Source: Candidatus Methanomethylicia archaeon
GTDB taxonomy: Archaea > Thermoproteota > Methanomethylicia > Nezhaarchaeales > B40-G2
Reading direction: 5' to 3'
Length of the DNA: 64,000 nt
Assembly (NCBI GenBank): GCA_029259155.1
Contig: JAPDJI010000014.1
Coordinates: 1 to 64,000 of the forward strand
Shown: piece by piece, positions 22,248 to 41,290 of the stretch
How the letters are laid out: each line of letters starts with the position of its first letter
Position numbering within the stretch: position 1 is the first letter of the stretch
The notes under the pieces: model-generated
Told to the model about the DNA's origin: nothing
Database searches by the model: none
The model's input: only the letters and a program-made list of their open reading frames with translations
Program-made: the position numbers and the translations under genes

Positions 22248-22360
22248 AGTGGCCTAGAACAAGAAACAAGCTTTAAGGGTTAACGCTTCAACAGTAGCTG
22301 AAGACGGGAAGGTAAGCTTAAAAATAGCTACTGATAGACATCTACCTGCGGTGGCTCAGC

Positions 22361-22726: not shown

Positions 22727-22741
22727 CCTGTAAAAATTTCT

Positions 22742-23158: not shown

Positions 23159-23164
23159 TTACGC

Positions 23165-23719
23165 TCACCCCATTTTTAACATAAACTTAGAGGCTTCCTT
23201 CAACGCTTCAGGTCTGGATCGGCATGGAGGACAAAGGGAGATGAGCTTACGGTACTCTTCGAGCGAAGCCCCCCGCTTATTTATCGACTCTTCCACTAGC
23301 TCAACTATCTTAGATAGTTGCCTTGACGTAGTAAAGTAGCTGCCACAGGAAGCACAGGCAGCTAATTCAAGCTCTAATTTATCTTCAGCCTCTTCCTTGT
23401 TATAGGTCACTATCACATACTCTCTAGATAGCTTGATGGCCTCCCAAGGACAGGTGTCTTCGCATCTACCGCAGAAGGCACAGTGTCCATGCCACACCCT
23501 TAAGACCCGCGTGGAGCCTTGATCCACCACGGTTATGGCTTTAGCCGGGCAAACTTGGCTGCATGCACCGCAACCTATGCATTTATCGCGGTCGTAGAGA
23601 GGCTTTCCTCTATAACCTTCAGCCGGGGGTATTTCCTTATACGGGTAAGGCACTGTCGATGGCTTGAGGAAGCCTTTAAGGCTCTCCAACATGGTTCTTA
23701 GGTTTACCAAATTAACCAC
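23165..23719 (-). CDS. 2x[4Fe-4S] subunit (HycF/EchF/NuoI-like)
   Basis: CIGCGACSQVCP and CAFCGRCEDTCP plus HycF-type CASC..CPPC. Confidence 0.9.
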   Translation of the reverse strand: MVNLVNLRTMLESLKGFLKPSTVPYPYKEIPPAEGYRGKPLYDRDKCIGCGACSQVCPAKAITVVDQGSTRVLRVWHGHCAFCGRCEDTCPWEAIKLSREYVIVTYNKEEAEDKLELELAACASCGSYFTTSRQLSKIVELVEESINKRGASLEEYRKLISLCPPCRSRPEALKEASKFMLKMG

Positions 23720-25803: not shown

Positions 25804-26685
25804 TCATCCCACCCTCTCAACGAGCTTGGTTAAAGGTATTCGGTGAAGGTCTAAGCCCACCTCCTCTGGCTTGTAGCCGAAGGAGAGGGCTAGGAGCTCA
25901 GATAGGTAAGCTACGGGTATGTTAAACTCGAGACTTGTCTTAGATTTAAGGTCGGCCTGCCCCACCTCGAACTGTAGATAGCAGGTGGGACACACCACAG
26001 CTATTAAGTCAGCACCAGCTTCACTCACAGATTCAAGCTTCATCCTTAACGTCTCAGTTAAGGATAGCTCTTCATCGAAGCTTCTCTGAGGGAAGCCGCA
26101 GCAAAGTCTTTCAAGCTTATAGTCCACGACTTCAGCACCTATAGCCTTAACCAGCTCTTTAAAGGCCTCAGCTTTGAAGTACCAGTCTTCAGTCTTCTTT
26201 GACCTATAGAGGTGGCATCCTGGATGGACAGCCACCTTGATGCCTGTCAGCGGCTTAACCACAGCCTGCTTAATGCGATCTAATCCTTGCTCGTAGAGAG
26301 CTTCGGTGAGGTGTTTGACTTCCACGGTACCCTGATACTTCTTGCCTATCTTCGATAACTCCTTATTTACCTTCTCCTTAGCCTCAGGGTTTTCCTTTAA
26401 AAACTCGTTTGCCTCGAAGAGGGTTTCATAGCAACCGTTACACAAGGTCAGCACGGGAAGACCTAGGGCTTCAGCTATGGTAATGTTTCTGGCCGCCATC
26501 GTCAACCATAGCTCACGGTCCAGCAGCCCTGTGTAGAAAGGCTCAGGACAACATGAAGTGCCCTCCATGTCTCGGTAGGGCACTCCAAGCTTTTCCAATA
26601 CCTTGCGCGTAGAGGCTTCTATGTTAGAGAATCGGGTTTGAATCCAGCAGCTCCAAAACATGGCGTAGCCGGTCAACACAACCAC
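25804..26685 (-). CDS. hdrB: Heterodisulfide reductase subunit B-like protein
   Basis: Two CCG domains: SC, SCCP, AARN, CNGC, HPGCH, CCG, CPTCYLQF. Confidence 0.9.
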   Translation of the reverse strand: MVVLTGYAMFWSCWIQTRFSNIEASTRKVLEKLGVPYRDMEGTSCCPEPFYTGLLDRELWLTMAARNITIAEALGLPVLTLCNGCYETLFEANEFLKENPEAKEKVNKELSKIGKKYQGTVEVKHLTEALYEQGLDRIKQAVVKPLTGIKVAVHPGCHLYRSKKTEDWYFKAEAFKELVKAIGAEVVDYKLERLCCGFPQRSFDEELSLTETLRMKLESVSEAGADLIAVVCPTCYLQFEVGQADLKSKTSLEFNIPVAYLSELLALSFGYKPEEVGLDLHRIPLTKLVERVG

Positions 26686-26686
26686 C

Positions 26687-27352
26687 TCAATACCTCAACT
26701 TCTTACGTCCCCAGTCGAACTTCACCTTCTCGTCGAACTTGAAGTCCTTCATCAACTTCTGCACTTCAGTTAACGACGCAGGGTCGACAGCAGTACATTT
26801 AACAGCTTCAGGAAGACCTAGCTTAACGCGCTGCCTCTTAGCCGCGAAGGTCAAGGGGAAGCGCAGCCCCGTCGTCAACACCCCCTCTATCCCTGGCTTC
26901 TGAGTATCCGTCACAGGACCTTTCATAGGTCCTCTAAGCGGCTTAAGCTCCTCAGGCGCCTCAAAGGGTAGGGATATGTGACGTGGATCTGGATGTCCCT
27001 CAAACCGGATCCCAAACATGTCTTGTACTTCCCTCTCTATCATCCCCGCCCCGGGTATGATGGGGGTGATGGAGTCTACCGTTGGCTTCTCCTTGGGCAC
27101 CTTGAACTTGAGGTTCACGTAACTCCTCCCTATGGTCATATGGTAAATGAGCTCGAAATCTACTCCTAGGTCTACAGCTGAGATTGTGCAAAGCCTAGCG
27201 TTCTTCTCGTTGAAAAGCCACTCTACCATTTCCCTTAAGCAGTAGGGCTCTATGTATACTACGTACCTAGTCTCCCTGGCTTCTTGCACTTCGTGGACAA
27301 CATCCTTAAACTTGTTCTTCAGCTCCTCAACAACCTCCTTCATCACCATCAC
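26687..27352 (-). CDS. NuoC/EchD-like subunit with C-terminal HdrC-tail domain
   Basis: ISAVD..ELIYH..VDSITP..EREVQDMFGIRFEGHP; last ~77 aa resemble the HdrC C-terminus. Confidence 0.85.
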   Translation of the reverse strand: MMVMKEVVEELKNKFKDVVHEVQEARETRYVVYIEPYCLREMVEWLFNEKNARLCTISAVDLGVDFELIYHMTIGRSYVNLKFKVPKEKPTVDSITPIIPGAGMIEREVQDMFGIRFEGHPDPRHISLPFEAPEELKPLRGPMKGPVTDTQKPGIEGVLTTGLRFPLTFAAKRQRVKLGLPEAVKCTAVDPASLTEVQKLMKDFKFDEKVKFDWGRKKLRY

Positions 27353-29895
27353 CCCGCTAATGAACTAGCCAACCTCCAAGCCCAGTTGAATAAGGGGTCA
27401 GGAATCATGCCCAAAACCACGCAGAGAGCAACTAAGACCAGGGCTATAGCGGCCAGACCTGTGGCTTCACGTATCTTCTCGGCTTCAGGTATGGGCTCAC
27501 CCAAGAATGCTCCGCTGAATCCCTTGACCATAGCGGCCAGCAAGGTTACCGTGGAGAAAGCTACGATCAAGACTAAGTCCCACCTACCTGCCTCTGCTAA
27601 GGCTACGTAAAGCTGGTATTCGCTCCACCAAGTGTTGAAGGGAGGTATGCAGGCGAGGGCTAGGCTGCTAGCTATGAAGGCTAACGCGATCATGGGCATA
27701 CGTCCAGCTAGCCCTTTGAAGCTATCCAGCCTTGTGGTTCCAGCTTTACTGGCCACCGCGGCTATGCAGTGCAGCATAGCTCATGAAGCTGGGATGATGT
27801 TAACCAAGTGGATCAACCCGCCAGCTAGGCAGTGTACATAGCCTTCTACTCCTTTAGCTAGGTCGGCTGCACCTAGCTCCATGACCACGTCGCCGAGCTG
27901 AACCACGACCGCGGCTACGAAGAGTCTCTTTAGATCTCGGTGGTGAGCTGCCACCAGCGCACCGATGAGCATCATAGCTGTGCCCACGTAGAGGATAGGG
28001 GTTAGGAGACCCGTGGCTAAGGCTCCAGTTAAGGAGAGGAAGGCTATGCCTGCTAGGACGATTGCCCTAGTCTCTATGAACCTAGCTAACCCGAAGTAAG
28101 CTAGGTCAAATCCACCACGCTTCATAAAGTTGTGGAGAGGTGCTATGAGTGAGGCAAAGTTAAGGTAGAAGGGGCCAGGCCCTACCTTGGCTTTCTCTAA
28201 GCTTAGGTAGGGCTCCTCGACCTCGCCCCCTGTGAAGGGCATGGCGGCGTAGGTGGTGACTACCATGGGTTTAAGGGAGGCATGGTATATAGCGTAGCCT
28301 ACGAGCATAGAGATTAAGATGATGAGGGTGAGGCCCAGGGCTTCATAGAACCCTATCGGGGTAGCGAAGCCTAAGAGGAAGTAGCTGGGGACCCCAGCTC
28401 CCACTATTAAGGCCACAGCCGGGTTGATTAGGGTATCGAGCAACAATCTTGGCGCCACGCCGAGGACCACGCAGAGAGCAGCTAGGATGACGATGGGTAT
28501 CTGCATGGTGAGAGGTACTTCTTTAATCCCCTCCAACCTACTAGGCCTAACCCCGAAGAAGGCTGAGTGAAGCATCTTTAGCACGGAAGCGAGGGTTATT
28601 GCGCTGCCGAGGAGGGCTATTGCACAGTATAGCGCATACATTGCGCCTACAAGGCCCCCTTCAGCTAAGGCCCTCTGGATAGCGCCCTCATAGATGAGTA
28701 GCTTGCTAGCAAAGCCGTTAAGCGGCGGGATTCCTGCCAAGGCTAGGCCGCCGATGATCATGCAGGCAGCGGTCACAGGCATGTTACGTGCTAAGCCACC
28801 CATCTCGCTCAGCTTCTTGGTGCCAGTTACGTAGATTAGGCAGCCAGCACCGAGGAAGAGGAGGCCTTTGAAGATGGCGTGGTTAAAGAAGTGGAAGAGG
28901 CCTCCAGCTATGCCCACTGCGGTACCTATTCCTAAGCCGAGGAACATGTAGCCTATCTGAGCGGCGGTGTGGTAGGCTAGGAGCCTTTTGACGTCGTCTT
29001 GTAGCCAAGCCCCTGCAGAACATATGATTAAGGTGAAGGCCCCCACCGTGGCCATGGCAATATCCATGGGAGTCTTAAGCGGTGTTAAAGCAGCTAGCTG
29101 AGCAGATCTAGCCATTAAGTAAACCCCGGCCTTAACCATGGCTGCTGCGTGGAGGAAGGCGGTCACGGCAGAGGGAGCTACCGTAGCGTCTGGGAGCCAG
29201 TTATGGACAGGGAATTGCACCGACTTAGCCATGGAGGCGACGAGGAAGAGAGGCATCGCTGCGGCTAAAGCCAGTAGGGGGGCAGCTCCGTTTAAGCTGG
29301 GTAGGTCTAGGCTAGTCTTCCCCTGCGCCAGTAGGACTAAGATGCCCAAGATGATGCCTGCGCCGCAAGCATGCGTCATTATCAAGGCCTTCATGGAAGC
29401 CCTGGAGCTCTCAACCTTACGTATGTAGAACCCTATGAGGCCATAGGAACATAGCCCCACAAGCTCCCAGAATACGAAGAGTAATAACAGGTTCCCCGCT
29501 GAGAAGAGACCTATCATGGATCCTTGAAAGAGCAGCATCAGTGCAAAGTACCTGGTGTGCCCCTCAGCTTCATGAGCCATGTCGGCTACCGAGTATAGGA
29601 TCGCCATGAAGCCGAAGAAGCCGGACATCACTACAAACAACATCGATAAGGCGTCGCCGTAGAGCAGAAGGCCTATGTTTATTCCCTGAGCTCTAAGAAA
29701 ACCAGCTTCTATGGCTATTGGTCCTAGCTGTAAGACTGAGGCTGTGGCCCATAGCGAGGCTAGGAAGGTTAGAAGCGTGAAGAGGGTTGCAAGGTAGGCC
29801 TTAACTTTATAGGAAGCTTTATGGAGTATCGCAACTAAGAAGCTTCCCGCTAAAGGTAGGGTGACCGAGAGTATGAATGCCAGCTGAGCATTCAT
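27349..29895 (-). CDS. Antiporter-like (NuoL/MrpA/HyfB) membrane subunit interrupted by one in-frame TGA at 27781-27783
   Basis: FWELVG, KSVQFPVHNWLPDA, HAAAMVKAG, DVKRLLAYHT, NHAIFKG, GIPPLNGFASK; ORFs 27781..29895 and 27349..27777 share a frame (IIPAS*AMLHC). Confidence 0.8.
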
Positions 29896-30356
29896 GGTCT
29901 TACCCCACTAATCTTAGATCTTAACTCTAAGGCTATCTCTCTTGGGTAAGCCCTTAAGGCTCCCGAGGAGCAGACCTTTACGCATTCAGGGTCGCCATCA
30001 CATAGATCACACTTAACCGACACTCTAAGCTCTTCATTGAAAGCGGGGACTGATAGTGGGCATGCATAGTTGCAGGTTTTACACCCTATACATTTCACTT
30101 GATTTATCCTAACTATGCCTGCCTCATCCTTCCAAATAGCTTCACTTAGACAGGCAGCCATGCAGAGAGGTTCTTCGCAGTGTAGGCAGTAAATAGCTTG
30201 GAACGTGCCTGTAGCTGGGTCGAAGACGTGTTTTATGTATGACTTAGCATACCCTGCTTCCCCATAGTGCTTATAGCTACAGGCAACCTCGCAAGCCCTA
30301 CATCCAGTGCATTTGGATGGGTCAAACACCAGCTTGAGCTCCACCACCTTCCTCAT
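29892..30356 (-). CDS. 4x[4Fe-4S] electron-transfer subunit (HycB/CooF-like)
   Basis: CTGCRACEVAC, CLHCEEPLCMAAC, CIGCKTCNYACP, KCDLCDGDPECVKVC. Confidence 0.9.
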   Translation of the reverse strand: MRKVVELKLVFDPSKCTGCRACEVACSYKHYGEAGYAKSYIKHVFDPATGTFQAIYCLHCEEPLCMAACLSEAIWKDEAGIVRINQVKCIGCKTCNYACPLSVPAFNEELRVSVKCDLCDGDPECVKVCSSGALRAYPREIALELRSKISGVRP

Positions 30357-30506
30357 CCTCCCCGGGAGCTGCCTTATCGTTCGAAATTCGCTTTAAAGCA
30401 GTTTCGCTCCTGTCCACATCGATTTTATCTAGAGCAATAGCTCTCAGGGTTACAGTTCTCATTAAACTTGAGAATAAAAAACGGTGGAGCAAAAAAGCGG
30501 AGTGGC

Positions 30507-31847
30507 TTAAGCTTTCTTTAAGGCAGCCTCCGCTGCTAGCGTTATGGCGCTCCAAGTATCGGCTAAAGGAGGCGTATAGCAGGTATCAGCTTTAGCTAGC
30601 TCATAAGCAGTCATACCCTTCTGGATAGCTAACGACAGTGCGTCTACGCGAGGCGCTACACCTTCACCGCCTAGGATTTGAGCGCCGATGAGCTTCATGG
30701 AAGCCTTCTCGAAGATCAGCTTCACCCTTATGTCCTTAGCTCCAGGATAGTACTCCGCCCTTGTCTTCCAAGGTATAGAGCCGACAACAACCTCCATGCC
30801 TGCTTGCCTGGCTTGCCACTCAGTCAGGCCTGTGAAGCCCACTTCAACGTCGAATAGCTTTGAAACCGCTGAACCTAATACCCCTGGGAAGGTAGCATAG
30901 CCGCCTGCAGCGTTTATGCCTGCCACCTTACCCTGCTTCACTGCCGTGGTTCCTAGCTGACAAAGTACGGGCTGCATGGTGACTAAGTGTACGCTCTCCA
31001 CGCAGTCACCTGCTGCATAGATGTCTTCTACCGTAGTCTTCATCCTGGCGTCTACCTTAATCCCTCCAGTTACACCTAGCTTACATCCAGCCTTGACCGC
31101 TAGGTCGGTGTTGGCTCTGACGCCTATCGCCATGACTACAAGGTCTGCGTCAACCTGTTCGCCTCCAGCAGCTACTGCCTTAACGTGGTCATCGCCGAGT
31201 ATCTCATCTGCCTTCGTGTTTAACATCAACTTGACGCCGTGAGCAGATATCTTGGTTTGAAGCAGCTTAGCCATGTCCTCATCTAGGATAGGTCTAAGAA
31301 CTTGGTGTAGAGCTTCAATGACAGTTACCTTTACTCCTCTCTTCACCAACCCTTCAGCGGCTTCCAGCCCTACTAAGCCGGCGCCTATGACCACGGCGCT
31401 TTTAGCCTTCAAGGCTTCTTCAAGAATAGCTGAGGCATCAGGTATTGTTCTAAGCGGGTACACACCTTTCTTATCGTAGCCCTTAATACGGGGGACCACT
31501 GCTCTGGCTCCTGTGGTTAAGATTAAGGAGTCGTACTCGAAGGTTTCCTCCTTTCCATCAGGCCCTACTGCTTTAACTACCTTAGCGCTATGGTCTATCT
31601 CTGTGACGGTGGTCTTGAGATGTAAGTCTATCTTCATCATTTTGTAGAACTCTGACTTATAGATGATGATATGGTCAAACCCTTCGATGTCGCCGCCTAT
31701 CACGAAAGGTAGGGCACAGCGTGAGTAGGCTGGTTTATCCTCAGCATCGATAACTTTTACCTCAACTTCTCTGCTGGTCCGTCTAGCATTGAGCGCAGCA
31801 TCTAATCCAGCAGCTCCACCTCCGATCACAACTACTCGTTTAGCCAT
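30507..31847 (-). CDS. FAD-dependent pyridine nucleotide-disulfide oxidoreductase (CoA-disulfide reductase/NADH oxidase family)
   Basis: GGGAAG, single redox Cys YSRCALP, GAGLVGLE, YAAGDC, DTCYTPP. Confidence 0.9.
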   Translation of the reverse strand: MAKRVVVIGGGAAGLDAALNARRTSREVEVKVIDAEDKPAYSRCALPFVIGGDIEGFDHIIIYKSEFYKMMKIDLHLKTTVTEIDHSAKVVKAVGPDGKEETFEYDSLILTTGARAVVPRIKGYDKKGVYPLRTIPDASAILEEALKAKSAVVIGAGLVGLEAAEGLVKRGVKVTVIEALHQVLRPILDEDMAKLLQTKISAHGVKLMLNTKADEILGDDHVKAVAAGGEQVDADLVVMAIGVRANTDLAVKAGCKLGVTGGIKVDARMKTTVEDIYAAGDCVESVHLVTMQPVLCQLGTTAVKQGKVAGINAAGGYATFPGVLGSAVSKLFDVEVGFTGLTEWQARQAGMEVVVGSIPWKTRAEYYPGAKDIRVKLIFEKASMKLIGAQILGGEGVAPRVDALSLAIQKGMTAYELAKADTCYTPPLADTWSAITLAAEAALKKA

Positions 31848-31871
31848 CTTCCTCAGCCTTTCTTAGAGAGA

Positions 31872-32279
31872 CTACATAATGGTCTTAAGCCACCCAGCCG
31901 CCTTATCGGCGGTCATTAAATTCTTTAGCTCTTCATCGAGGTTGCTAGCCTCTATTACCACCAGCCAGCCCTTACCGTAGGGGTCCTCGTTAAGTACTGA
32001 AGGGTTGCTTTGAACCTCAGCGTTAACCTCCTTAATGGTTCCGGATATCGGTGATATTAGGTCTACGGCTGCTTTTAACGACTCGGCGCTGCCGAAGGCG
32101 TCGCCAACGTTCACGGTAGAGCCGGGATCTAGCAGGCTTATGTTTATGACCTGTTTCAGGTTCTTCTGTGCATAGTCTGTTATGCCAACTCTAGCCTTGC
32201 CGTCCTCCACCTTAACCCACACGTGGTTCTCTGAGTAATACAGTCCTTCGGGAACCTCGTATTCTCCCACCGTAACCAA
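31872..32279 (-). CDS. gcvH: Lipoyl carrier protein (glycine cleavage H protein family)
   Basis: HVWV, VGITDYAQ, ESLKA lipoyl-Lys, PISG, NEDPYGKGW. Confidence 0.93.
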   Translation of the reverse strand: MVTVGEYEVPEGLYYSENHVWVKVEDGKARVGITDYAQKNLKQVINISLLDPGSTVNVGDAFGSAESLKAAVDLISPISGTIKEVNAEVQSNPSVLNEDPYGKGWLVVIEASNLDEELKNLMTADKAAGWLKTIM

Positions 32280-32539
32280 ACTTTACGCACCCCTTTGAGC
32301 TTCGGTTGTAAGGTGTATTTAGAGTTTCTGCGCTGATTCCATGAACTAATGTAAACGTGAAGTCTTTTCGGGAAGAACTGGTAGGGCTGAGGCCTTAATT
32401 CAGCTACGAGAAATGATGGATCGGGGATAAGGGTTAAGAGGGGGATCGCTAAATCACTTCAAGTGAGTTGCCTAAAAATACAAAGCCTGGGAGGATCTAA
32501 AGCTCTCAGGCTTCTGGATAGCTTTGCTATGAGGGGTCA

Positions 32540-33661
32540 TTGATGTCGGAGGAGCTAAGAAGAGAGCTATCCTCCTGTACAGATTGTAGGATGTGTGACA
32601 ATGTCTGTCCCTTCTACCTCGCTACGGGAGACGAGTCCATAGGTGCCTGGAACAAGGTTAAAGTTGCTCAAGCTGTGCTAGGGGGCGATAGGCAGGTCAG
32701 CGATGTATTGAGAGAACTGTACCTATGTACCTGCTGCGGAACCTGTGAGCTTGCCTGCCCCTTTAATATCCCGATATCTGAGGCAGTTAGAGCTTTAAGG
32801 AGCTTAGCTGTCAAGGAGCGTTGCGCTCCGGAACCTGTCGTTAAGCTGTGTGAAGGGATAATCAACCAGGGATCGATGACTGGTGAGGGGAAGGAGTTCT
32901 GGAGGAGCTGGATCCCCACTGAGGTGAATTTCCCTAGTGAAGCTGAGTACCTCTACCTTGTAGGTTGCATGATCCCCTTTAGGCTCCGTGATGTAGGCAG
33001 GGCTACGGTGGATATCTTGAAGGCAGCTGGCGTGGACTTCACAATTTTAGGTGAGGATGAGAGGTGTTGCGGCCTCCTCCTCGTGGATCACGGCTTCCTA
33101 GAAGAAGCTAAGACGGTCGCGGAGAGAAACCTATCGAGCGTAGAAGGGAGGAAGCCTAGCGTCGTTCTGATGGCGTGCGCCGCCTGCTACTATACGTACA
33201 AGCATGTTTACCAGAGGATCTATAGGAAACCTGAGTTTGAGGTGATACACGTAGCGGAGGCCTTAGCCGACCTCATCGATCATGGGAGGATAAGCTTCAA
33301 GAAGCGGATTGATGAGAAGGTGGCCTTCCTTGACCCCTGCCACTTCGTGAAGGTCTCTGGTAAATACGAGATTCCCAGGAAGGTGATCGAGAACATTCCC
33401 GGGCTGAAGTTAATTGAGTTCCCGAGAAGCAGGGCTGAAGCGCTTTGTTGCGGCGCACCCGGAGGTATTAGGCTGGTGTCTAGGGATGTAGCGTTCTCCG
33501 CGGCTGGAATGATAGTTAAGGAGGCCCTCAAGCTGGAGGTTTCAAGGATCGTAACCTCCTGTCCGCTCTGCATGTATCAGCTTTCATGGGCTGCTGAAAA
33601 GCTGGGGGCGGGGAGGTTAAAGGTAACTGACCTTCCCTTGTTAGTGAAGGAAGCTCTCTGA
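32540..33661 (+). CDS. HdrD-like Fe-S oxidoreductase (2x[4Fe-4S] plus two CCG domains)
   Basis: CTDCRMCDNVCP, CTCCGTCELACP, GC, ERCCG, CAAC, DPCH, CCGAPGG, SCPLC. Confidence 0.85.
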   Translation: MMSEELRRELSSCTDCRMCDNVCPFYLATGDESIGAWNKVKVAQAVLGGDRQVSDVLRELYLCTCCGTCELACPFNIPISEAVRALRSLAVKERCAPEPVVKLCEGIINQGSMTGEGKEFWRSWIPTEVNFPSEAEYLYLVGCMIPFRLRDVGRATVDILKAAGVDFTILGEDERCCGLLLVDHGFLEEAKTVAERNLSSVEGRKPSVVLMACAACYYTYKHVYQRIYRKPEFEVIHVAEALADLIDHGRISFKKRIDEKVAFLDPCHFVKVSGKYEIPRKVIENIPGLKLIEFPRSRAEALCCGAPGGIRLVSRDVAFSAAGMIVKEALKLEVSRIVTSCPLCMYQLSWAAEKLGAGRLKVTDLPLLVKEAL

Positions 33662-33730
33662 ACTTTGATCTCCACGCCCCGTTCTCATGGCTTATCACGC
33701 ATGTAAAGCTTTAATGAAGAATTAATTAGG

Positions 33731-34765
33731 ATGGTAGACGTGAGACTGGTCGACGAGATGAGGCACTTGAAGCCTAGGTTAGTCAGGGTTTCCTACGGCT
33801 CAGCGGTAGTCTTAGGCTTAGCTAGGGGATGGCTTAAGACTAAACCGACCACCAGCTATCTCTTAACTTACTTAGAAGAGCGCTGCCTAGCTAACTGCGG
33901 TTTCTGTCCTCAAGCTAAAGATAGTAATGCTAGCCTAGACCTCCTATCCAGGGTGGAGTGGCCTCCTTACCCTGCTCAAGAAGTAGTGGAGAGGGCCGTG
34001 AACGCTTTAAGGCGAGGCTTATTGAAGAGAGCCTGCGTCCAAGTTGTTAACAGGCCTGAGGGCTTAAATCAGGCTTTATGGCTCGTGGAACATGTAAGCC
34101 TAGGAGGAGAATTACCTGTATCAGTTTCTATACCTCCGTTAGGGCGTAGTGGGCTTGAAGCCTTTAAACGGACAGGGGCAGGCAGAGTCTCCATAGCGTT
34201 AGATGCTGCTAATCGCAGGGTCTTCGACGAGGTTAAAGGACTTAATGCTGGTGGGCCCTACACTTGGGATGGACACTGGAATGCGCTTAGAAAAGCCCTC
34301 GAGGTTTTTGGCCCTGGAAACGTGACGACCCACCTTATTGTGGGTCTTGGGGAAACTGAGAGAGACCTAGCACGCGTCATCGATAAGCTATTATCGATAA
34401 AGGTACTCCCAGCCCTCTTCGCCTTCACTCCTATACCTGGTACTAGGCTTGAAGCGTTACCTCAACCTGAAGTAGCAAGCTATCGCCGCATTCAGCTTGT
34501 GAGACACTTACTGGTAAAGGGTATAGTTTCTCTTAAGGACCTGGAGTTTAACCATGTAGGGAGGCTTGTTCGCATAAAAGCTTCCAGCGAGGAGGTAATG
34601 AGAGAGATCGAGAGCGGTGAACCTTTCGAGACTTCAGGGTGTCCTGGATGTAATAGACCTTTTTACAACGAGAAACCTGGAGGGCCTCTCTATAATTACC
34701 CAAGACCTTTAAGCAGAAAAGAGGTGGAGGAGGCCTTAAGCCTGCTGAGAGACGTGGTAGCCTGA
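33731..34765 (+). CDS. Radical SAM protein, archaeal-type lipoyl synthase subunit LipS2-like
   Basis: CLANCGFC radical SAM motif and C-terminal TSGCPGCNRP; lipoate ligase and gcvH neighbours. Confidence 0.75.
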   Translation: MVDVRLVDEMRHLKPRLVRVSYGSAVVLGLARGWLKTKPTTSYLLTYLEERCLANCGFCPQAKDSNASLDLLSRVEWPPYPAQEVVERAVNALRRGLLKRACVQVVNRPEGLNQALWLVEHVSLGGELPVSVSIPPLGRSGLEAFKRTGAGRVSIALDAANRRVFDEVKGLNAGGPYTWDGHWNALRKALEVFGPGNVTTHLIVGLGETERDLARVIDKLLSIKVLPALFAFTPIPGTRLEALPQPEVASYRRIQLVRHLLVKGIVSLKDLEFNHVGRLVRIKASSEEVMREIESGEPFETSGCPGCNRPFYNEKPGGPLYNYPRPLSRKEVEEALSLLRDVVA

Positions 34766-34874
34766 GAAGGAAATATTAAGGAAGTTGAAGGCTTATCAGC
34801 GACCTATATTGGGCGCTAAGGTCGTAGAGGAGTAAAAGATTATCTAATAGAGCTCTTTCTTTTGGGGGGCTGAA

Positions 34875-35324
34875 ATGAGGGTAGACAAGATGCAACCTGA
34901 ATTAACTTTCCATGTACAGGTAGAGTGGGATGGCTCTACTGGAGGTGAGGCTAAACTCTCAGTACAGCCTCCCTTAAGGTTTGATACCCCAAGGGACTTC
35001 GGAGGCTCTGAAGCTGGCTATTGCCCAGAAGAGCTTTTCTTAGCGTCGTTGGCTGCTTGCTTAACCACAACCTTTGCTTATCTAAGGCCTAAGCTAGGCT
35101 TAGAGGCTTCCTCGCTGAGGATAAATGCCACTGACCGCGTCGAGTTTAGAGACGGAGGCTACATGGTGACCGAGGCCTGGATGAAGGTGAAGCTGGAAGT
35201 TAGGAAAGGTCAGGCTGAGTTAGCGAGACAATGCGTGGAACTTGCTGCTGAGTACTGCCATGTAACTAGGTCAATAAGGAGATGTATACCTGTTCACTTA
35301 GAAGTAGAGGTGGTAGAGGTTTAA
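34875..35324 (+). CDS. OsmC/Ohr-family protein
   Basis: DTPRDFGG..PEELFLASLAAC..YCHV two-Cys pattern. Confidence 0.85.
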   Translation: MRVDKMQPELTFHVQVEWDGSTGGEAKLSVQPPLRFDTPRDFGGSEAGYCPEELFLASLAACLTTTFAYLRPKLGLEASSLRINATDRVEFRDGGYMVTEAWMKVKLEVRKGQAELARQCVELAAEYCHVTRSIRRCIPVHLEVEVVEV

Positions 35325-35448
35325 TGAATAGGTCCATCCCCAACATTTACGAATTTTCTTTCAAGTCCTCTGCGGCGCATTGATTAATCTAAAAGGCTTA
35401 ATTAGATCTATGAGAGGATGAAATAATCCACCTAAGAGGTGGTGAAGG

Positions 35449-36225
35449 CTGACTGAGGAGTGGAGGCTTCTGAAGACAGGTAGTGGTGATGCCTACTGGA
35501 ACATGGCTGTAGACGAAGCTATCTTAACAGCGAGAACTGAAGGCAAAGTGCCGAATACCTTGCGCCTATACACTTGGAAGCCCTCTGCAGTATCAATAGG
35601 CTTTTTCCAGAGCTTACACCACGAAGTGGACTTGGAGGAATGTCGTAATCTAGGAGTAGACGTAGTTAGACGCATAACTGGTGGAGGGGCAGTGTTTCAT
35701 GACAGTGACGGTGAAGTGACCTATAGCGTAGTGGTGGCGGAGGCTGACTTGAAACGTATAACTCCTCACTCCACTATACAGGAATCCTATGAAGCTCTAT
35801 GTAAAGGTTTGCTGGAAGGGTTGAAAGAGCTAGCTATAGCAGCTGAGTTTAAACCAATAAACGATATACTCGTTGCTGGACGTAAGATCTCAGGCAGTGC
35901 TCAGACTAGGCGTAGGGGCATTATTCTTCAGCATGGCACTTTACTGCTTAAAAGCGATATAAGAACCATGTTCAGGGTGTTGAAGGTCTCCAAGGAAAAA
36001 ATAAGCGACAAGCTGATCAAGGAGGTGGAGGAGAGAGTTACCAATATATATCGTGAAACTGGCCGTGAACTAGCTGTCGAGGAGGTTATAGGTGCTCTCG
36101 TCAAAGGTTTTCAACGCGCATTAGGGGTCAAATTAAAGGAGGGCGAGCTGTCCCCATATGAGCTTAGCTTAGCTGAAGAGTTTAAGCATAGATATGCCTC
36201 AAAGGAGTGGCTTGAGCTTAGGTGA
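35449..36225 (+). CDS. lplA: Lipoate-protein ligase catalytic subunit
   Basis: WRLL..NMAVDEAIL, RRITGGGAVFHD, RKISGSAQ, QHGTLL; homology extends upstream of ATG 35503 to a CTG at 35449. Confidence 0.9.
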   Translation: MTEEWRLLKTGSGDAYWNMAVDEAILTARTEGKVPNTLRLYTWKPSAVSIGFFQSLHHEVDLEECRNLGVDVVRRITGGGAVFHDSDGEVTYSVVVAEADLKRITPHSTIQESYEALCKGLLEGLKELAIAAEFKPINDILVAGRKISGSAQTRRRGIILQHGTLLLKSDIRTMFRVLKVSKEKISDKLIKEVEERVTNIYRETGRELAVEEVIGALVKGFQRALGVKLKEGELSPYELSLAEEFKHRYASKEWLELR

Positions 36226-36524
36226 ACGAGTTGAGGGTCGAGGCTGAACATAAGGTAGCTGGGGGTAAACTGGTTAGAGTAGAGCTTGAAGTAGAGGAAG
36301 GAGTGATTAAGAGGATCAAGATAACCGGTGACTTCTTTCTTTACCCAGAGGAAGCCGTTTTTAAGCTCGAGGAGGCTCTAAAAGGAGTTCGTGCTAGCAG
36401 TGAACTTGAAAAGCTCATAGAGCATGAACTATCTAAGCAGGGAGCTGAGCTCTTAGGGGCGTCTCCGGCAGACATAGCTACGGCTATTAATAAGGCTTTA
36501 ACCTCCATTAATCCTTGGCAATGA
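36222..36524 (+). CDS. Lipoate-protein ligase accessory (C-terminal domain) subunit, LplB-like
   Basis: KVAGGKLVRV..ITGDFFLYPEE; 4-nt overlap with lplA. Confidence 0.88.
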   Translation: MNELRVEAEHKVAGGKLVRVELEVEEGVIKRIKITGDFFLYPEEAVFKLEEALKGVRASSELEKLIEHELSKQGAELLGASPADIATAINKALTSINPWQ

Positions 36525-36635: not shown

Positions 36636-37850
36636 GTGAGGAGAGACCTCCTAGCTCTTATCGGTAACAGTATCTGTGTATGGTTTCCAGGAGCCGTAAC
36701 CTTCGGCCTCATAGGTCTCCTCACCCCTACTTGGGCAGAGATGTTTGGTGTAGGTCGTGGCCCTCTAGGTTTAGTCATGACGTTTCTTCTAGCATCGCTA
36801 GGGTTATTCATGTTTCTTGGAGGAAGATGGTCCGATAGGTATGGAGCCAGACTGATAGCTACTATAGGTTCAATAATCGCAGCGGTATCCTTGGCACTCT
36901 TCACTTTCTCTGAAAGCTTAGACATGTTATACCTACTAGCCTTTAGCTGGGGCGCTGGGATATGCCTAGTATACGTACCTACGGTCAGTAGCGCGCAGCG
37001 ATGGTTTCCTCGAAGGAGGGGGATGGCGTCAGGAATAGTTAGCATGCTTTTCGGTATATCAGCGGCCTTCATGATCCCCGTCTTTCGTTACTGGATGGAT
37101 AACCTAGGCTACTCTGCGACGCTTCTCATTACAGCTATACTTACTGTGGTGGTTGGAGTGCTTTCAGCCCAACTCATAGAGTTCCCGGAGAGATTAAGCC
37201 CTGTTTTGTTAGTTATATCTAAAAGGCTTGAAGAAAGTAAGGCTGAGAGAAAACAAGAGACTCTCTATACTTTGCGTGAAGCGCTGAAGACTAAGGCCTT
37301 TTGGCTTACATGGCTTACATGGGCTCTATGTGGAGGGGCAGGTATAGGCATGGTTGTATTTTCCACGTCGATCAGCTTAGAACTGGGGCTCACCACTGCG
37401 ATGGCGGCTACTGCCTTGGCTGCCTTTAACCTAACCAATGGGCTTGGGAGGATGATGAGCGGAATACTTTCTGACAGGATTGGGAGGGTCACGGTTATGT
37501 CTTCGCTTTACATAGCGGGTGCAGGAGGCTTCTTCCTTTTACTGGCTGGTAAAGGCCTTCCACACATTGTATTGCTATCCAACCTCCTTGCTGGACTAGC
37601 TTTCGGGACGTTGTTCGCGGTGTCAGCCCCCTTCATCATGGATTGCTTCGGCACTAAACACTATGGTGCCATCTTTGGCTTCACCTTCACTGCCTATGGT
37701 TTTGTTGGAAGCTGGATAGGACCCTTCATAGGAGGCCTTCTAAGAGATCTGACAGGTAGTTACCAAGTAACTTGCTTAGTGTTTGGCTTATACTGTTTAG
37801 CCTCAGCAGCCTCGATTTTTCTAGCTAAACCCCCTCACTCTAAACCCTAG
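36636..37850 (+). CDS. MFS transporter, oxalate/formate antiporter (OFA)-like
   Basis: GRWSDRYG, RWFPRRRGMASG, NGLGR..GILSDRIGR, FGTKHYG. Confidence 0.85.
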   Translation: MRRDLLALIGNSICVWFPGAVTFGLIGLLTPTWAEMFGVGRGPLGLVMTFLLASLGLFMFLGGRWSDRYGARLIATIGSIIAAVSLALFTFSESLDMLYLLAFSWGAGICLVYVPTVSSAQRWFPRRRGMASGIVSMLFGISAAFMIPVFRYWMDNLGYSATLLITAILTVVVGVLSAQLIEFPERLSPVLLVISKRLEESKAERKQETLYTLREALKTKAFWLTWLTWALCGGAGIGMVVFSTSISLELGLTTAMAATALAAFNLTNGLGRMMSGILSDRIGRVTVMSSLYIAGAGGFFLLLAGKGLPHIVLLSNLLAGLAFGTLFAVSAPFIMDCFGTKHYGAIFGFTFTAYGFVGSWIGPFIGGLLRDLTGSYQVTCLVFGLYCLASAASIFLAKPPHSKP

Positions 37851-37889: not shown

Positions 37890-38921
37890 TCAACATACTC
37901 TAGGTATCGGTTCCCCTATAGGAGTCTCCACGATCCTTTTACCGCCTACCTCAGTCTCTAGGATAACGAAGCCAGACCTCTCAGCTGTAGCCTCACCGAT
38001 AATGGCTGCCCCTCTACCATGCTTTGTAGTCTTAATGGCGCTGAGGACTTCCTCGGCCTTATCACGCTTAACCCCTAGCACTGCTCTACCTTCACAGGTA
38101 ACCTCTAAAGGATCTAGGCCAAGCATCTCAGAGGCGGCCCTAACCTCAGGCTTAACGGGTATAGAGGCCTCCCAAAGACTTATGCCCACTCCTGACTTGC
38201 TAGCCATTTCATTTAACGCAGCTGCTAGTCCTCCGCGCGTCGGGTCTTTAGCAGCTGTCACTCCCCCTACTTTGAGAGCAGCCTCTATCACGTCCCATAT
38301 CGGTGCTACGTCAGATACGAGCTTTGTTTCAAAGCTTAAACCTTCCCTGACGGAGGCTAAGGCTATTCCATGGTCGCCAACCGTACCCGTCACTATTATT
38401 AAGTCTCCTGGCTTAAGCCCTGAGTCTCTAAGCGCGTTTCCCTGCTTTATGAACCCTACACCGCATGTAGTGATCACCATATTGTCTAGGCGGCCTTTAG
38501 GCATCACCTTGAAGTCCCCGCTTATAATGGCGACCCCTGCTTCCTTGGCTGCCTCGTCCATTGACTTAGCTATACGTCGAAGGTCCTCCACGGGGAGGCC
38601 TTCCTCCACCACTATGGCGTCGACTATAGCTACTGGCTTAGCACCCATAACAGCTAAGTCGTTGACTGTTCCTGCCACGGCAAGCCTACCTATATCACCT
38701 CCCGGGAAGAAGATAGGATCCACGGTGTGGGAGTCTATTGTGACCACCACCTCAATGTCTCCTACAGGTATGGTAGCTCCATCGTCCAGCTCGTCGAGAC
38801 CTATCCCCTCACCAACCTTCCTTAACGTAAAGTTAGGCATTAACACCTTAGCTAGCAGCTCTGACATCGCTGCGCCTCCACCGCCATGTATTAGTTGGAT
38901 GACATCCTTTGACAACTTCAA
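37890..38921 (-). CDS. hypE: Hydrogenase maturation protein HypE
   Basis: HGGGG, FFPGGDIGRLAVAGTVNDL, DPTRGG, C-terminal PRVC. Confidence 0.96.
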   Translation of the reverse strand: MKLSKDVIQLIHGGGGAAMSELLAKVLMPNFTLRKVGEGIGLDELDDGATIPVGDIEVVVTIDSHTVDPIFFPGGDIGRLAVAGTVNDLAVMGAKPVAIVDAIVVEEGLPVEDLRRIAKSMDEAAKEAGVAIISGDFKVMPKGRLDNMVITTCGVGFIKQGNALRDSGLKPGDLIIVTGTVGDHGIALASVREGLSFETKLVSDVAPIWDVIEAALKVGGVTAAKDPTRGGLAAALNEMASKSGVGISLWEASIPVKPEVRAASEMLGLDPLEVTCEGRAVLGVKRDKAEEVLSAIKTTKHGRGAAIIGEATAERSGFVILETEVGGKRIVETPIGEPIPRVC

Positions 38922-38965
38922 CGCCTCACCTCGACTACTCTCAACCCTCTTAAAAGTGCATTTAT

Positions 38966-41290
38966 CTAGCTAGCAAGCCTTGCTGCTGCTATTGCTACTT
39001 GGCCTAAGGATATCCCTCCGTCGCCGCTTGGAGCTTTAATATGTCTATAGAACCTTAACCCTCTAGCTTCAACCATCTCCCTTATCTTCCTAGTTATGCG
39101 GTCGTTATAGGCGACGCCGCCGCTGAAACCGATAGCCTTAATCCCTTCTTTTTCAGCAGCCTCAATGGCCATTAGCGCCAATCCTTTAGCTAATGCTTCC
39201 TGTACCGCAGCCGCTACATCAGCTCTTCCAGCCCCCCTCCTATAAGCATCTAGAGCCTCGACCAGGATAAGCGGGGTGTCTAACCACATGCAGTTATCTC
39301 CACCACTTTTAACCCTCACCGGCAGGTCAAGGTAGCTTGGATCACCGCTGGAGGCTAGTGCTTCAAGCTTTATGGCAGGCTCACCTTCATAAGTCCTCTC
39401 CAGACAGGCCTTAAGCATAACCGAGGCTGCATCCAAAACCCTACCGGTGCTAGTCGTGTAGGGGTGGCTTTGCTTCTCGAGCTGTTTAGCTACGACCTCG
39501 ACTTCAGCCTCACCGTGTCTAAAGCCTTCCAGGTACTCTGACATGACCACTTGGATGGCTTCGCCAATACCGAGTACCTGGCTCAACGCCGACATGAGCA
39601 TCCTGGCCGGGTAACGAGCGCAAAGATCTCCTCCAGGCATTGGTAGCCTAGCTAGCCTTCCAACCCTCTTGAAGCCAAGGTAGCTGGCGACGAGTACTTC
39701 TCCTCCCCAAGCCTCTCCGTCAAGGCCATAGCCTATCCCGTCAGCCGCTATACATATGAAGGTTTCATCCAGCCCTAGGCCGTGTTCAGCCATGAGGCTG
39801 GCGGCGTGAGCATGGTGGTGCTGCACTTCCAACAGCTCGGCATCAAAGCGCTCTGCCAGCTCCTTAGCTAACCTCCTCGTCAAGAAGCGTGGGTGAAGGT
39901 CGCAGGCTACCACTTCGACCTTATCGATGCTCAGCAGCCTCTTTAAGGACTCTAGGCTTGAAGCTAGGTAATCGTAGGTTTCAAGCCTATCTACATCGCC
40001 TATATACTGAGTTGGATAGCAGTGGTCTCTCTTTAGTATCGCTCCGGTGACGTTTTCTTCAGCTCCTACAGCTATTGCTGAGCCTTTAGACGTAAAGCTT
40101 AGCTTAAAGGGCTCCATTACGTAGCCCCTGGACCTCCTAATGGGGTTAGGTTTACCGTCGACCAGCTTTACCACGGAGTCGTCGCAGCGGTTTACGATGC
40201 GGCGGTTATGTAGTAAGAGGTAGTCAACTATGCCTTGTAGCTGTTTAAAGGCAGCCTCGTTATCTATGGCCATGGGCTCACCAGGCTCGTTGCCGCTCGT
40301 CATGATGACTGCAGGCTCGTTGAGGTGGCTTAGTAAGACATGATGTATGCCTGAGTAAGCTAACATCGCACCTACGCTATCAAGCCCTGGAGCTATCAGC
40401 TCAGAGAGCCTAAATGGCTCAAGCTTCTTCAATAGTAGGATAGGCCTCCTAAATGAGGTTAGGAGTTCCTCCTCAAGCTTCGATACGTTAGCGTACGTCT
40501 TGACCTGCTCCAGCGTCCTAGACATGACAGCTAAGGGTCGCTGAGGTCTACGTTTACGTCTACGCAACTTAGCTACTACCTCATCGTCCGTAGCTAGAGC
40601 AGCGACATGTACTCCACCTATTCCTTTAACGCCTACCACGTAGCCTTCCTTTATGAGGCGCGCAGCTTCCCTTAATGGATCGTCGACCGCAATTTCCTCC
40701 TTATCAATGGAGTAGAGCTTCATCTGTGGGCCGCAGCGCCAGCAACATACAGGCTCAGCGTGATGTCTCCTATCTAGAGGATCATGGTACTCTCGAGCGC
40801 AGTCTTCACACATAGGAAAATCTACCATGGAGGTCCTGACGCGGTCGTATGGCAGGTCTAGTATAATGGTGAACCTCGGCCCGCAGTAACTGCAAACTAT
40901 GAAGGGGTAGAGGTATCTTCTACCTCCAGGCGTGAAAAGTTCTTTCAAACATTCTTCACAAGTAGCTATGTCAGGCGGAGGGTTAGAGAAGCCTCCTGCA
41001 GCGGCTTCCTTATCGCTCTCCTCTATTTTAAACTCGGTTAGGCCTTTAGTTTCTTCCCACTTTACGTCTAGTCTCTCATATAGGGCTAAAGGAGGCTTCT
41101 CTTCCACGAGCTTCTTCAAGAAGTTCTCCAGCCTTCCCTCCTCGCCTTCTACTACTATCTCTACGCCTGCATCGCCAAGGTTCTTAACATAGCCTTTTAA
41201 CCCATTTCTAACAGCTATGCGGTAGACGAATGGCCTAAATCCTACCCCCTGTACTACACCGCTGCAACGTATCACAGCTCTCCTCAACAA
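38966..41290 (-). CDS. hypF: Carbamoyltransferase HypF
   Basis: GVVQGVGFRPF, zinc fingers, KGIGG, QHHHAH, DGGISLGQ. Confidence 0.96.
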   Translation of the reverse strand: MLRRAVIRCSGVVQGVGFRPFVYRIAVRNGLKGYVKNLGDAGVEIVVEGEEGRLENFLKKLVEEKPPLALYERLDVKWEETKGLTEFKIEESDKEAAAGGFSNPPPDIATCEECLKELFTPGGRRYLYPFIVCSYCGPRFTIILDLPYDRVRTSMVDFPMCEDCAREYHDPLDRRHHAEPVCCWRCGPQMKLYSIDKEEIAVDDPLREAARLIKEGYVVGVKGIGGVHVAALATDDEVVAKLRRRKRRPQRPLAVMSRTLEQVKTYANVSKLEEELLTSFRRPILLLKKLEPFRLSELIAPGLDSVGAMLAYSGIHHVLLSHLNEPAVIMTSGNEPGEPMAIDNEAAFKQLQGIVDYLLLHNRRIVNRCDDSVVKLVDGKPNPIRRSRGYVMEPFKLSFTSKGSAIAVGAEENVTGAILKRDHCYPTQYIGDVDRLETYDYLASSLESLKRLLSIDKVEVVACDLHPRFLTRRLAKELAERFDAELLEVQHHHAHAASLMAEHGLGLDETFICIAADGIGYGLDGEAWGGEVLVASYLGFKRVGRLARLPMPGGDLCARYPARMLMSALSQVLGIGEAIQVVMSEYLEGFRHGEAEVEVVAKQLEKQSHPYTTSTGRVLDAASVMLKACLERTYEGEPAIKLEALASSGDPSYLDLPVRVKSGGDNCMWLDTPLILVEALDAYRRGAGRADVAAAVQEALAKGLALMAIEAAEKEGIKAIGFSGGVAYNDRITRKIREMVEARGLRFYRHIKAPSGDGGISLGQVAIAAARLAS

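Follow-up and report, generated by a model that had tools for sequence, protein, structure and literature searches.

HdrB-associated group 4 hydrogenases (Ehd, Ehe, Drh, and Ehg) are treated by Kohtz et al. 2022 (PMC9723716), who named the Ehd, Ehe, and Ehg types and in whose text they figure as genome-based predictions only. One paragraph of that text suggests that the HdrB in the Ehe of the Culexarchaeia is offered its disulfide by the lipoyl group of GcvH, and the accessible parts mention neither lipoate-assembly genes, nor OsmC, nor a flavoprotein. A second precedent is the sHdr-LbpA system, in which lipoyl-bearing GcvH-like proteins occur with Hdr-like CCG proteins, dedicated Lpl(AB) ligases, and LipS1/LipS2 (Cao et al. 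2018, PMC6067878; Tanabe et al. 2023, PMC10332631); in the scheme proposed for it, an Hdr-like enzyme reduces the lipoyl group and a flavoprotein passes electrons to NAD+ (PMC6067878). Third, protein lipoyl groups count as accepted reductants of Ohr/OsmC peroxidases in the available portion of PMC5384416, and for Hyphomicrobium a GcvH-like protein has been suggested as the donor for OsmC (bioRxiv 10.64898/2026.10.01.755906). Here we analyze a locus with likenesses to all of these: within a 64,000-nucleotide stretch of archaeal DNA (hereafter the window; positions 1 to 64,000 of contig JAPDJI010000014.1, Candidatus Methanomethylicia archaeon, assembly GCA_029259155.1), positions 30,507 to 36,524 encode a GcvH-like lipoyl carrier, a flavoprotein, lipoate-assembly enzymes, and an OsmC-family protein beside a hydrogenase operon with an embedded hdrB.

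The genome that holds the window (1.55 Mb in 47 contigs, 94% complete) appears to come from a heat-loving archaeon of a non-methanogenic, Nezhaarchaeales-like lineage; below, "the family" denotes this genome with its relatives G001, G002, and G003, and "Culexarchaeia-type" the families f4, f7, and f8 (plus f9 in some counts). We tentatively interpret the lipoyl-GcvH of the locus as a protein-bound dithiol/disulfide redox hub and not as a part of glycine cleavage, an interpretation whose chances we put slightly short of even. A preliminary description of this DNA had proposed that a lipoyl-carrier module ties the hydrogenase to the NAD(H) pool, and all the genes that it named are present at the positions it gave (open reading frame (ORF) listing, Pfam, NCBIfam). 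Its label "undescribed" has to be given up, because Kohtz et al. 2022 (PMC9723716), in its accessible text, already named the HdrB-hydrogenases and proposed the GcvH–HdrB pairing. It also overlooked the precedented lipoyl-dependent reduction of peroxides by an H protein, a flavoprotein, and OsmC.

The linkage of gcvH to the hydrogenase-hdrB operon, which that description had seen in a single genome, extends well beyond it. All four family genomes have gcvH within 6 kb of the HdrB-hydrogenase: G002 and G003 share the arrangement gcvH-flavoprotein-fd4-hydrogenase with lipS2-(osmC)-lplA-lplB in divergent orientation, and so does G001 as far as its contig goes, which ends within nuoL. Wherever the family contigs extend that far, the lipoyl module is placed between the hydrogenase genes and hypE/hypF. 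Among the 12 genomes of families f4, f7, and f8, nine have gcvH directly upstream of an fd4-hdrB-hydrogenase set with another gene order, and there gcvH overlaps fd4 by 4 nt or lies within 12 nt of it; the three without linkage comprise two that are 45% and 57% complete and one that does not have this hydrogenase. The genome G031 carries a co-directional string of gcvH, fd4, hdrB, nuoB, nuoL, nuoCD, nuoH, nuoI, LplB, LipS2, LplA, and LipS1, with both synthases above the curated cut-offs (LipS2 364 bits, LipS1 243 bits). As the f4, f7, and f8 genomes also code for GcvP and for a second GcvH beside gcvT, the hydrogenase-linked copy is an extra one. Thus, the recurrence in 4/4 family genomes and 9/12 genomes of other families, in different gene orders, argues that the linkage is more than chance.

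No such linkage was seen in 11 Methanomethylicales-type genomes that match HdrB, none of which has gcvH on the same contig within 10 kb; the HdrB contig is shorter than 3 kb in two of these, so that adjacency there is possible, and HdrB is confirmed as hydrogenase-linked in G016 only. An HdrB-based locus search (7-sequence alignment) returned plain, hydrogenase-free HdrB at 66 of 80 loci, mostly methanogen-titled. A third hydrogenase–Hdr architecture beside the gcvH-flavoprotein pair was observed in G339 (L198 5230-16127), which has lipS2 / lipS1-gcvH-flavoprotein-[NiFe] small-large-HdrA/MvhD, with hdrB 5 kb on; its hydrogenase is of the soluble type.

Judged by gene content, no canonical lipoate user was detected in the window genome or in the three other family genomes. 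GcvP (PF02347) and GcvT (PF01571) gave no match in any of the four (92–98% complete), and the E2 component of 2-oxoacid dehydrogenases was not found in them either; the absence of gcvP, gcvT, and 2-oxoacid dehydrogenase genes, first noted for the window, therefore holds across its 94%-complete genome. In the sister family, GcvP and GcvT were each found, in effect, in 0 of 10 genomes. The sole match to the lipoyl/biotinyl domain PF00364 in the window genome is a GcvH paralog, and no canonical dihydrolipoamide dehydrogenase (Lpd) rises above the cut-off there, the best Lpd-like match being the window flavoprotein. The same genome keeps LipS1, two LipS2-like genes, and three ligases; it has three GcvH proteins, as has each of G001, G002, and G003. 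The preliminary description had considered that mcr, like gcvPT, might lie elsewhere in the genome, and McrA and ComA both gave no match in the 94%-complete assembly. By tblastn, at least four HdrB-like and about eight HdrD-like/CCG genes are spread over its contigs 5, 7, 9, 10, 12, 14, and 34. Since HdrB requires a disulfide, the lack of McrA and ComA matches together with two intact CCG motifs and retained equivalents of 5ODC E87 and H154 counts in favor of a lipoyl substrate.

The carrier is encoded at 31872..32279 on the minus strand (135 residues; PF01597 126.9 bits; TIGR00527 124.9 bits, cut-off 115.85) and has the lipoyl-lysine motif ESLKA, with K69 invariant in 34/34 aligned relatives. 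Trees of 49 and 71 sequences resolve one group of gcvT-linked GcvHs, a group B1 of copies linked to lipS1, GlcD/CCG, or DsrEFH/HdrA genes, and, apart from the gcvT-linked proteins, a group B2 of flavoprotein-linked and hydrogenase-linked copies that includes the window GcvH; orphan GcvHs of family f3 form a separate set. Within B2, the window clade and family f6 are sister to the Culexarchaeia-type hydrogenase-linked GcvHs (support 93/80). We also considered that each lineage brought gcvH to its hydrogenase independently; this picture, in which the GcvHs are sister groups and the hydrogenase gene orders differ, neither shows nor excludes it. Across lineages, GcvH genes stand repeatedly beside CCG proteins, and this is our main argument that CCG sites may act on the lipoyl disulfide.

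Further lipoyl loci were seen in the course of these comparisons. Contig 21 of the window genome (L004 5756-11136) holds a second one, kept in the three other family genomes: lipS1 (7032-8021; LipS1 242.9 bits, cut-off 230) is coupled to a GcvH paralog (6598-7035), and a divergent third GcvH (8078-8542) adjoins a CCG protein (8561-9289), followed by a fusion of a GlcD-like FAD oxidase with an HdrC-like Fe-S domain (9289-11136). The gene set suggests a 2-hydroxyacid dehydrogenase handing electrons to lipoyl-GcvH. GcvHs embedded among Etf and Hdr genes occur in G004 (L134 1594-10508; etfB-etfA-hdrA/mvhD-hdrD-gcvH-(GlcD-FeS-CCG)) and in G017 (L163 5446-11081; gcvH-flavoprotein-(FeS+CCG protein)-etfB-etfA), and hint at ties to fatty-acid or lactate oxidation. 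Two genomes of the methanogenic sister family have GcvH in tusA-dsrE-hdrA/mvhD-gcvH-dsrE-dsrF-dsrH (G007, L140 4172-8861) and mvhD-hdrB-gcvH-dsrEFH (G014, L138 10891-13758); these sets resemble the sHdr/LbpA sulfur relay, and GcvP (bar one weak match, E 6e-4) and GcvT were not found there.

Directly downstream of gcvH, at 30507..31847 on the minus strand, lies the gene for a single-cysteine FAD/NAD(P)H disulfide reductase of 446 residues (Pyr_redox_2 + Pyr_redox_dim). Its top models are those of CoA-disulfide reductase (CoADR), TIGR03385 (389.7 bits) and PRK09564, and it scores below both curated CoADR cut-offs (389.7 vs 578.8 and 361.9 vs 458 bits). It has one redox cysteine, Cys44, in the sequence YSRCALPF (an SxxC-x-LP motif), does not have CxxxxC, and keeps this cysteine in 29/29 homologs; we take Cys44 to be the catalytic cysteine of the CoADR/Nox/Npsr class. 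The best PDB matches are 6pfz, 4fx9, 3kd9, 3nta, and 8a56; among these nearest relatives of known structure are an enzyme from A. fulgidus (6pfz), a Shewanella-type enzyme (3nta), and a CoA-persulfide reductase (8a56). Going by these features, the flavoprotein is a member of the CoADR/Nox/Npsr class, that is, a single-cysteine pyridine nucleotide-disulfide oxidoreductase (PNDOR). An identity as Lpd was rejected on its score against TIGR01350 (143.6 bits, cut-off 408.8, covering residues 78-420 only), the single Cys44, and the missing CxxxxC. The earlier call of a flavin disulfide reductase thus stands as far as the reductase goes, and a place in the lipoamide dehydrogenase family does not. Like the archaeal CoADR, NADH oxidase, and persulfide reductase enzymes (4fx9, 3kd9, 6pfz, 6ruz, 3nta), which it resembles over its full length (E 1e-84 to 1e-98), the protein has the single SxxC-x-LP cysteine; unlike them, its clade is nearly always found beside gcvH, and it has no rhodanese domain. 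The specificity and function of archaeal CoADR/Npsr proteins are described as hard to determine in the accessible part of PMC6026696.

We surveyed 401 genomes sampled from the phylum, 88 of which have a flavoprotein homolog at E ≤ 1e-90. At 27 of the 30 best loci, gcvH is immediately upstream in the same orientation, and a hand comparison of coordinates placed it within 0.5 kb of the flavoprotein gene in 46 of 59 places with E ≤ 1e-119. The distribution of the flavoprotein complements that of Lpd (E ≤ 1e-60): Lpd is present in 28/32 Methanomethylicales-type, 0/4 family, and 1/13 f4+f7+f8+f9 genomes, and the flavoprotein in 1/32, 4/4, and 9/11 sampled genomes of the same groups, with G017 the only genome of the class to have both. 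In G073, which has GcvT, there is a single GcvH, and its gene forms the pair with the flavoprotein gene. We read the conserved pairing, the complementarity with Lpd, and the case of G073 as non-orthologous replacement of the L protein; it is thus quite probable that the flavoprotein links the lipoyl arm on GcvH, in both redox directions, to NAD(P). The link to the NAD(H) pool through this enzyme, as put forward earlier, fits both the pairing across the phylum and the distribution complementary to Lpd. A search of the literature for GcvH together with CoADR or NADH oxidase gave no paper naming GcvH.

The hydrogenase operon lies on the minus strand and begins with fd4 (29892..30356), which codes for a HydN-like ferredoxin with several [4Fe-4S] motifs (Fer4_11, Fer4_6) and in relatives always adjoins hdrB or gcvH. 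It continues with a NuoL/MrpD-like antiporter subunit of 704 residues and a 142-residue MrpD-like piece (27349..29895; PF00361, PF00662), a NuoC-like subunit (26687..27352; PF00329), HdrB (25804..26685; PF02754 x2), the large subunit of a group 4 [NiFe]-hydrogenase, which has a C-terminal tail (24636..25799; PF00346, PF00374), and NuoH-like, NuoI-like, and small (NuoB-like) subunits (22742..24639; PF00146, Fer4 families, PF01058). The order is hence fd4-nuoL-mrpD-nuoC-hdrB-large-nuoH-nuoI-small, then hycI, and hdrB lies within the operon in three relatives as well. The large subunit has all four Ni-Fe cysteines, in RVCGICSDAH and DPCIACTDR, and the C-terminal 75 residues of NuoC weakly match the C-terminal arm of HdrC (9sfi_E, 8rvu_c, 5odc_C; residues 142-219; E 0.004-0.011). 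The HycI-type maturation protease (21699..22247, minus strand; PF01750) is kept downstream in three relatives. Between it and the small-subunit gene, the window has a gap of about 500 bp (22247-22742) with two overlapping ORFs (121 and 100 residues) that have no Pfam match; in relatives, hycI follows at most about 60 bp past the small-subunit gene. Two more group 4/complex I-type large-subunit homologs are encoded on contigs 19 and 7 of the genome.

This operon has the parts expected of an Ehd/Ehe-type enzyme: group 4 large and small subunits, NuoH, NuoI, and NuoC, an embedded hdrB, and an antiporter-like subunit. Like Ehe and Ehd, it represents a membrane-bound group 4 hydrogenase with embedded HdrB, ferredoxin, and antiporter subunit, with gcvH nearby, in a non-methanogenic host. 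Its gene order (fd4-nuoL-mrpD-nuoC-hdrB-large-nuoH-nuoI-nuoB) differs from that of Ehe (gcvH-fd4-x-hdrB-nuoB-x-nuoL-nuoCD-nuoH-nuoI), and, going by pairwise identities, its large subunit is nearer to Bathyarchaeia-titled loci (56–59%) than to the Ehe of the Culexarchaeia type (45–49%). Also unlike Ehe, the locus has a CoADR-like flavoprotein between gcvH and the hydrogenase, SdhA, CdhA, and HdrA2B2C2 were not seen as neighbors at the locus, and the genome is without any canonical glycine cleavage system.

HdrB itself, encoded between nuoC and the large-subunit gene, has 293 residues, a TIGR03288 score of 292 bits (below the cut-off of 345), and two complete CCG motifs, with cysteines C13/C45/C46/C82/C85 and C157/C195/C196/C232/C235; nine of these ten are invariant in 20 sequences, and C13 is present in at least 90%. 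All four cysteine-motif flanks differ from those in a comparison set of 58 methanogen HdrBs, a narrow set drawn mostly from Methanobacteriales; the window protein retains only 82 of the 149 positions that reach ≥90% conservation among them. The Gly/Arg-rich methanogen loop CCGAGGGVR reads CCGFPQRSF in the window protein, and the hydrogenase-linked HdrB of G008, a methanogenic Nezhaarchaeales relative, retains the methanogen version of the flank. The flank changes are suggestive of an altered substrate. The earlier suggestion that HdrB or HdrD may turn over lipoamide agrees with these changes as far as HdrB goes; its HdrD half loses support, the hdrD-like gene being a genome-specific neighbor. 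That gene (32540..33661, plus strand; Pfam, NCBIfam) codes for a protein with 2x[4Fe-4S] and two CCG domains, and it was rejected as a core part of the module, as no counterpart lies between gcvH and lipS2 in G001, G002, or G003. Co-folding of HdrB with GcvH (20-row and 34-row alignments) gave a score of 0.00 in both runs, made with no controls, and carries no weight either way.

The divergent, plus-strand genes provide for the cofactor. They code for the lipoyl synthase LipS2 (33731..34765; NF053743 327.7 bits, cut-off 270), an OsmC-family thiol peroxidase (34875..35324; PF02566), and the ligase subunits LplA (large, 35503..36225; PF21948, PF10437; NF053750 259 bits, below the cut-off of 480) and LplB (small, 36222..36524; NF053749 95.8 bits, cut-off 65). 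With LipS1 on contig 21, the LipS1/LipS2-sLpl(AB) pathway is complete in the genome. Like the sHdr-LbpA systems, the window has its GcvH encoded with Hdr-like CCG proteins and with its own lipoate-assembly genes. Unlike them, it has no hdrC1B1A-hyp-hdrC2B2 operon and no TusA/DsrE, its Hdr partner is built into a membrane hydrogenase, its NAD-linked enzyme is of the CoADR class and not Lpd, and its GcvH scores above the curated gcvH cut-off and stands apart from the DsrE-linked paralogs. Contig 1 (L208 5289-9085) and contig 10 (L210 4233-5366) were seen to hold a second LipS2-like gene (238 bits, below the cut-off) together with two LplA-LplB fusions. Counting the split enzyme of the window, there are as many ligases as GcvH paralogs, three of each, which recalls the dedicated ligases of the sHdr-LbpA systems.

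The OsmC protein (56 bits) holds several cysteines. Its gene is in the same place in G001 and G003 and missing in G002 (3/4 family genomes), and a Culexarchaeia-type Ehe cluster has osmC between the hydrogenase and lplB-lipS2. Work by Nyvltova and colleagues from 2016 reportedly describes peroxide detoxification in Trichomonas hydrogenosomes by OsmC plus an incomplete glycine decarboxylase that has H and L but neither P nor T. In gene content, the locus resembles the H+OsmC sets of Trichomonas and Hyphomicrobium: an OsmC-family protein is encoded together with an NAD-linked flavoprotein and with an H protein that has no P or T beside it. It differs in that the partner is not Lpd, the host is archaeal, it has its own LipS/Lpl genes, and it is situated between hydrogenase structural and maturation genes. 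By analogy, peroxide reduction by GcvH, the flavoprotein, and OsmC would be an ordinary, well-precedented reading of part of the locus.

Beyond lplB lies a major facilitator superfamily (MFS) transporter gene (36636..37850, plus strand; PF07690), which also follows lplB in G001 and G003 and follows lipS1 in a Culexarchaeia-type cluster (L047 19196-19996); at a guess, it might be a lipoate or octanoate importer. The hydrogenase maturation genes hypE and hypF come next (37890..41290, minus strand; Pfam), and hyp genes are likewise placed in G001 (hypF, hypE) and G003 (hypE).

The 150-bp spacer between the flavoprotein gene and fd4 (30357..30506, read on the minus strand; sequence and 3-genome alignment) has a T-run after the flavoprotein stop codon and a motif resembling a B recognition element (BRE) with TATA box. 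The motif, CGAAAC..CTTTAAAGCG, is identical in three genomes and ends 35 nt before the fd4 ATG, and GGAGG precedes the fd4 start codon. Visual inspection and conservation were the grounds for calling these signals promoter-like and terminator-like. The T-run and the conserved promoter-like motif together point to a hydrogenase operon with its own promoter and a separate two-gene unit, so that gcvH and the flavoprotein gene probably form their own transcription unit in the family. The preliminary description had joined the pair to the hydrogenase operon, which is right for adjacency and orientation and seemingly wrong for transcription. In G001 (L129 10771-11644), an 875-bp insert was noted between the flavoprotein gene and the promoter-like motif of fd4.

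Taken as a mechanism, the redox-hub interpretation would run as follows. The dedicated LplA/LplB and LipS2, with LipS1 from elsewhere in the genome, would build the lipoyl cofactor on GcvH. The flavoprotein would interconvert lipoyl- and dihydrolipoyl-GcvH with NAD(P)+/NAD(P)H in place of the missing Lpd, and this is the best-supported step. OsmC would reduce hydroperoxides with dihydrolipoyl-GcvH, and we consider such an outlet for the carrier probable. HdrB of the hydrogenase would take the lipoyl-GcvH disulfide as its substrate; for this family, a link between lipoyl-GcvH and the HdrB of the neighboring hydrogenase comes close to an even matter without reaching it, and we rate the link higher in the Culexarchaeia. 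The H2 couple has an E0' of about −414 mV. With the lipoyl group at an E0' of −290 mV (Cao 2018, PMC6067878), transfer from H2 to lipoyl-GcvH would span ~124 mV, or ~−24 kJ/mol, equivalent to about one translocated ion and less than with CoM-S-S-CoB. In reverse, low H2 pressure and assistance from the ion gradient might allow NAD(P)H to be disposed of as H2. A bolder version, which we hold to be rather unlikely, is that after the loss of CoM/CoB in methanogen-descended archaea lipoyl-GcvH came to replace the heterodisulfide for all CCG enzymes, with the complex working as an ion-translocating H2:lipoyl-protein oxidoreductase and the flavoprotein joining it to NAD(P)H in a new, reversible H2 <-> NAD(P)H route of energy conversion.

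Several points weigh against the redox-hub interpretation. First, synteny within one family is weak evidence, as kin are not independent, and no gcvH shows at the Bathyarchaeia-titled loci L051-L053, which have the most closely related hydrogenases, with only L053 spanning the full 10 kb on both sides. Second, the spacer signals make co-transcription of the gcvH-flavoprotein pair with the hydrogenase operon unlikely in the family, and most such pairs elsewhere in the phylum sit in unrelated, hydrogenase-free contexts (e.g., GAPDH-PGK). Third, HdrB is close to genuine CoM-S-S-CoB reductase subunits: it shares 42–45% of its residues with HdrBs of known structure (E 1e-75 to 1e-73; 5odc_B E 3e-73) and by alignment count keeps, as E91 and H158, the equivalents of 5ODC E87 and H154, which the accessible text of PMC13518236 assigns to proton delivery. 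A small-molecule disulfide could therefore still be its substrate; the Culexarchaeia-type HdrB has Lys in place of the H158 equivalent. Fourth, the flavoprotein family is known for the reduction of CoA-disulfide, persulfide, and polysulfide and not of lipoamide, according to the accessible portions of PMC6026696 and PMC7969121. Finally, it is from genomic evidence that we infer how the enzymes act, which way the electrons move, and how ions are coupled to this.

The rival account that survives best would make the module an antioxidant device only: GcvH, the flavoprotein as a surrogate L protein, and OsmC would form an NAD(P)H-dependent lipoyl peroxidase, the hydrogenase would use some other disulfide, and the adjacency would be inherited synteny. 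We think this on the whole unlikely, and it has several features of the locus on its side. The osmC gene lies within lipS2-osmC-lplA-lplB, divergent from gcvH-flavoprotein, in 3/4 family genomes; the hydrogenase operon has promoter-like and terminator-like signals of its own; the gcvH-flavoprotein pair is mostly solitary elsewhere; and both the lipoyl-reduced Ohr/OsmC enzymes (in the available portion of PMC5384416) and the GcvH–OsmC pair of Hyphomicrobium (bioRxiv 10.64898/2026.10.01.755906) provide precedents. However, it leaves unexplained why gcvH is translationally coupled to the fd4-hdrB-hydrogenase genes, with lipoate genes in the string, in 9/12 Culexarchaeia-type genomes, and it likewise does not account for the lipS1-gcvH-flavoprotein-MvhGA-HdrA set of G339 or for two further GcvH paralogs beside CCG proteins. 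It would also leave at least four HdrB and several HdrD-like proteins without a substrate in a genome with no McrA or ComA match, and the module is kept without osmC in G002.

Considerably less probable is a role as a sulfur carrier, in which the lipoyl arm would bear sulfane sulfur (as proposed for LbpA), the flavoprotein would be a persulfide or polysulfide reductase, and HdrB would tie H2 to sulfur reduction via a lipoyl persulfide or mixed disulfide. The solved relatives of the flavoprotein, which include 6pfz, 3nta, and the CoA-persulfide reductase 8a56, speak for it, as do the sister-family GcvH paralogs in tusA-dsrE-hdrA-gcvH-dsrE-dsrF-dsrH and mvhD-hdrB-gcvH-dsrEFH strings. Yet these DsrE/TusA-linked GcvHs belong to group B1 and not to the group of the window gene, tusA, dsrE, and rhodanese were not seen among the scanned genes of the window cluster, and the distribution of the flavoprotein complementary to Lpd fits a plain lipoamide dehydrogenase role better. 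That gcvH and an L-type partner are a decaying leftover of glycine cleavage, or that the unassembled 6% harbors P and T, is scarcely credible: the 94%-complete genome and G073, where the same pair probably serves glycine cleavage (sole GcvH, GcvT present), lend it something, but GcvP/GcvT occur in 0/4 family genomes (92–98% complete) and in effect 0/10 of the sister family, the genes show no decay and encode a lipoyl lysine and a redox cysteine that are invariant, and three GcvH paralogs with duplicated lipoylation genes are retained.

Literature searches covering main texts (supplements may hold gene tables) returned nothing on this system in non-methanogenic Nezhaarchaeales, on a complete LipS1/LipS2-Lpl(AB) set plus OsmC co-located with these hydrogenases, on a phylum-wide gcvH–CoADR-like pair or its complementarity with Lpd, or on genomes with no lipoyl proteins other than GcvH paralogs beside CCG enzymes. 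The locus bears on two puzzles, namely the substrates of Hdr-like enzymes outside methanogens and the role of the archaeal CoADR/Npsr flavoproteins, and lipoyl-GcvH is a testable candidate for both. If only the peroxide-reducing role is true, this would be the first archaeal system of H protein, L protein, and OsmC, and one with a non-orthologous L protein. If the bolder version is correct, the CoADR-like flavoprotein would supply a long-sought physiological link for its enzyme class, and, should the HdrB of a membrane hydrogenase reduce a lipoyl protein, this would be a sixth kind of lipoate-dependent system. It would then represent a new mode of H2-based energy conservation and would show how these archaea repurposed methanogenic machinery once methanogenesis was lost.

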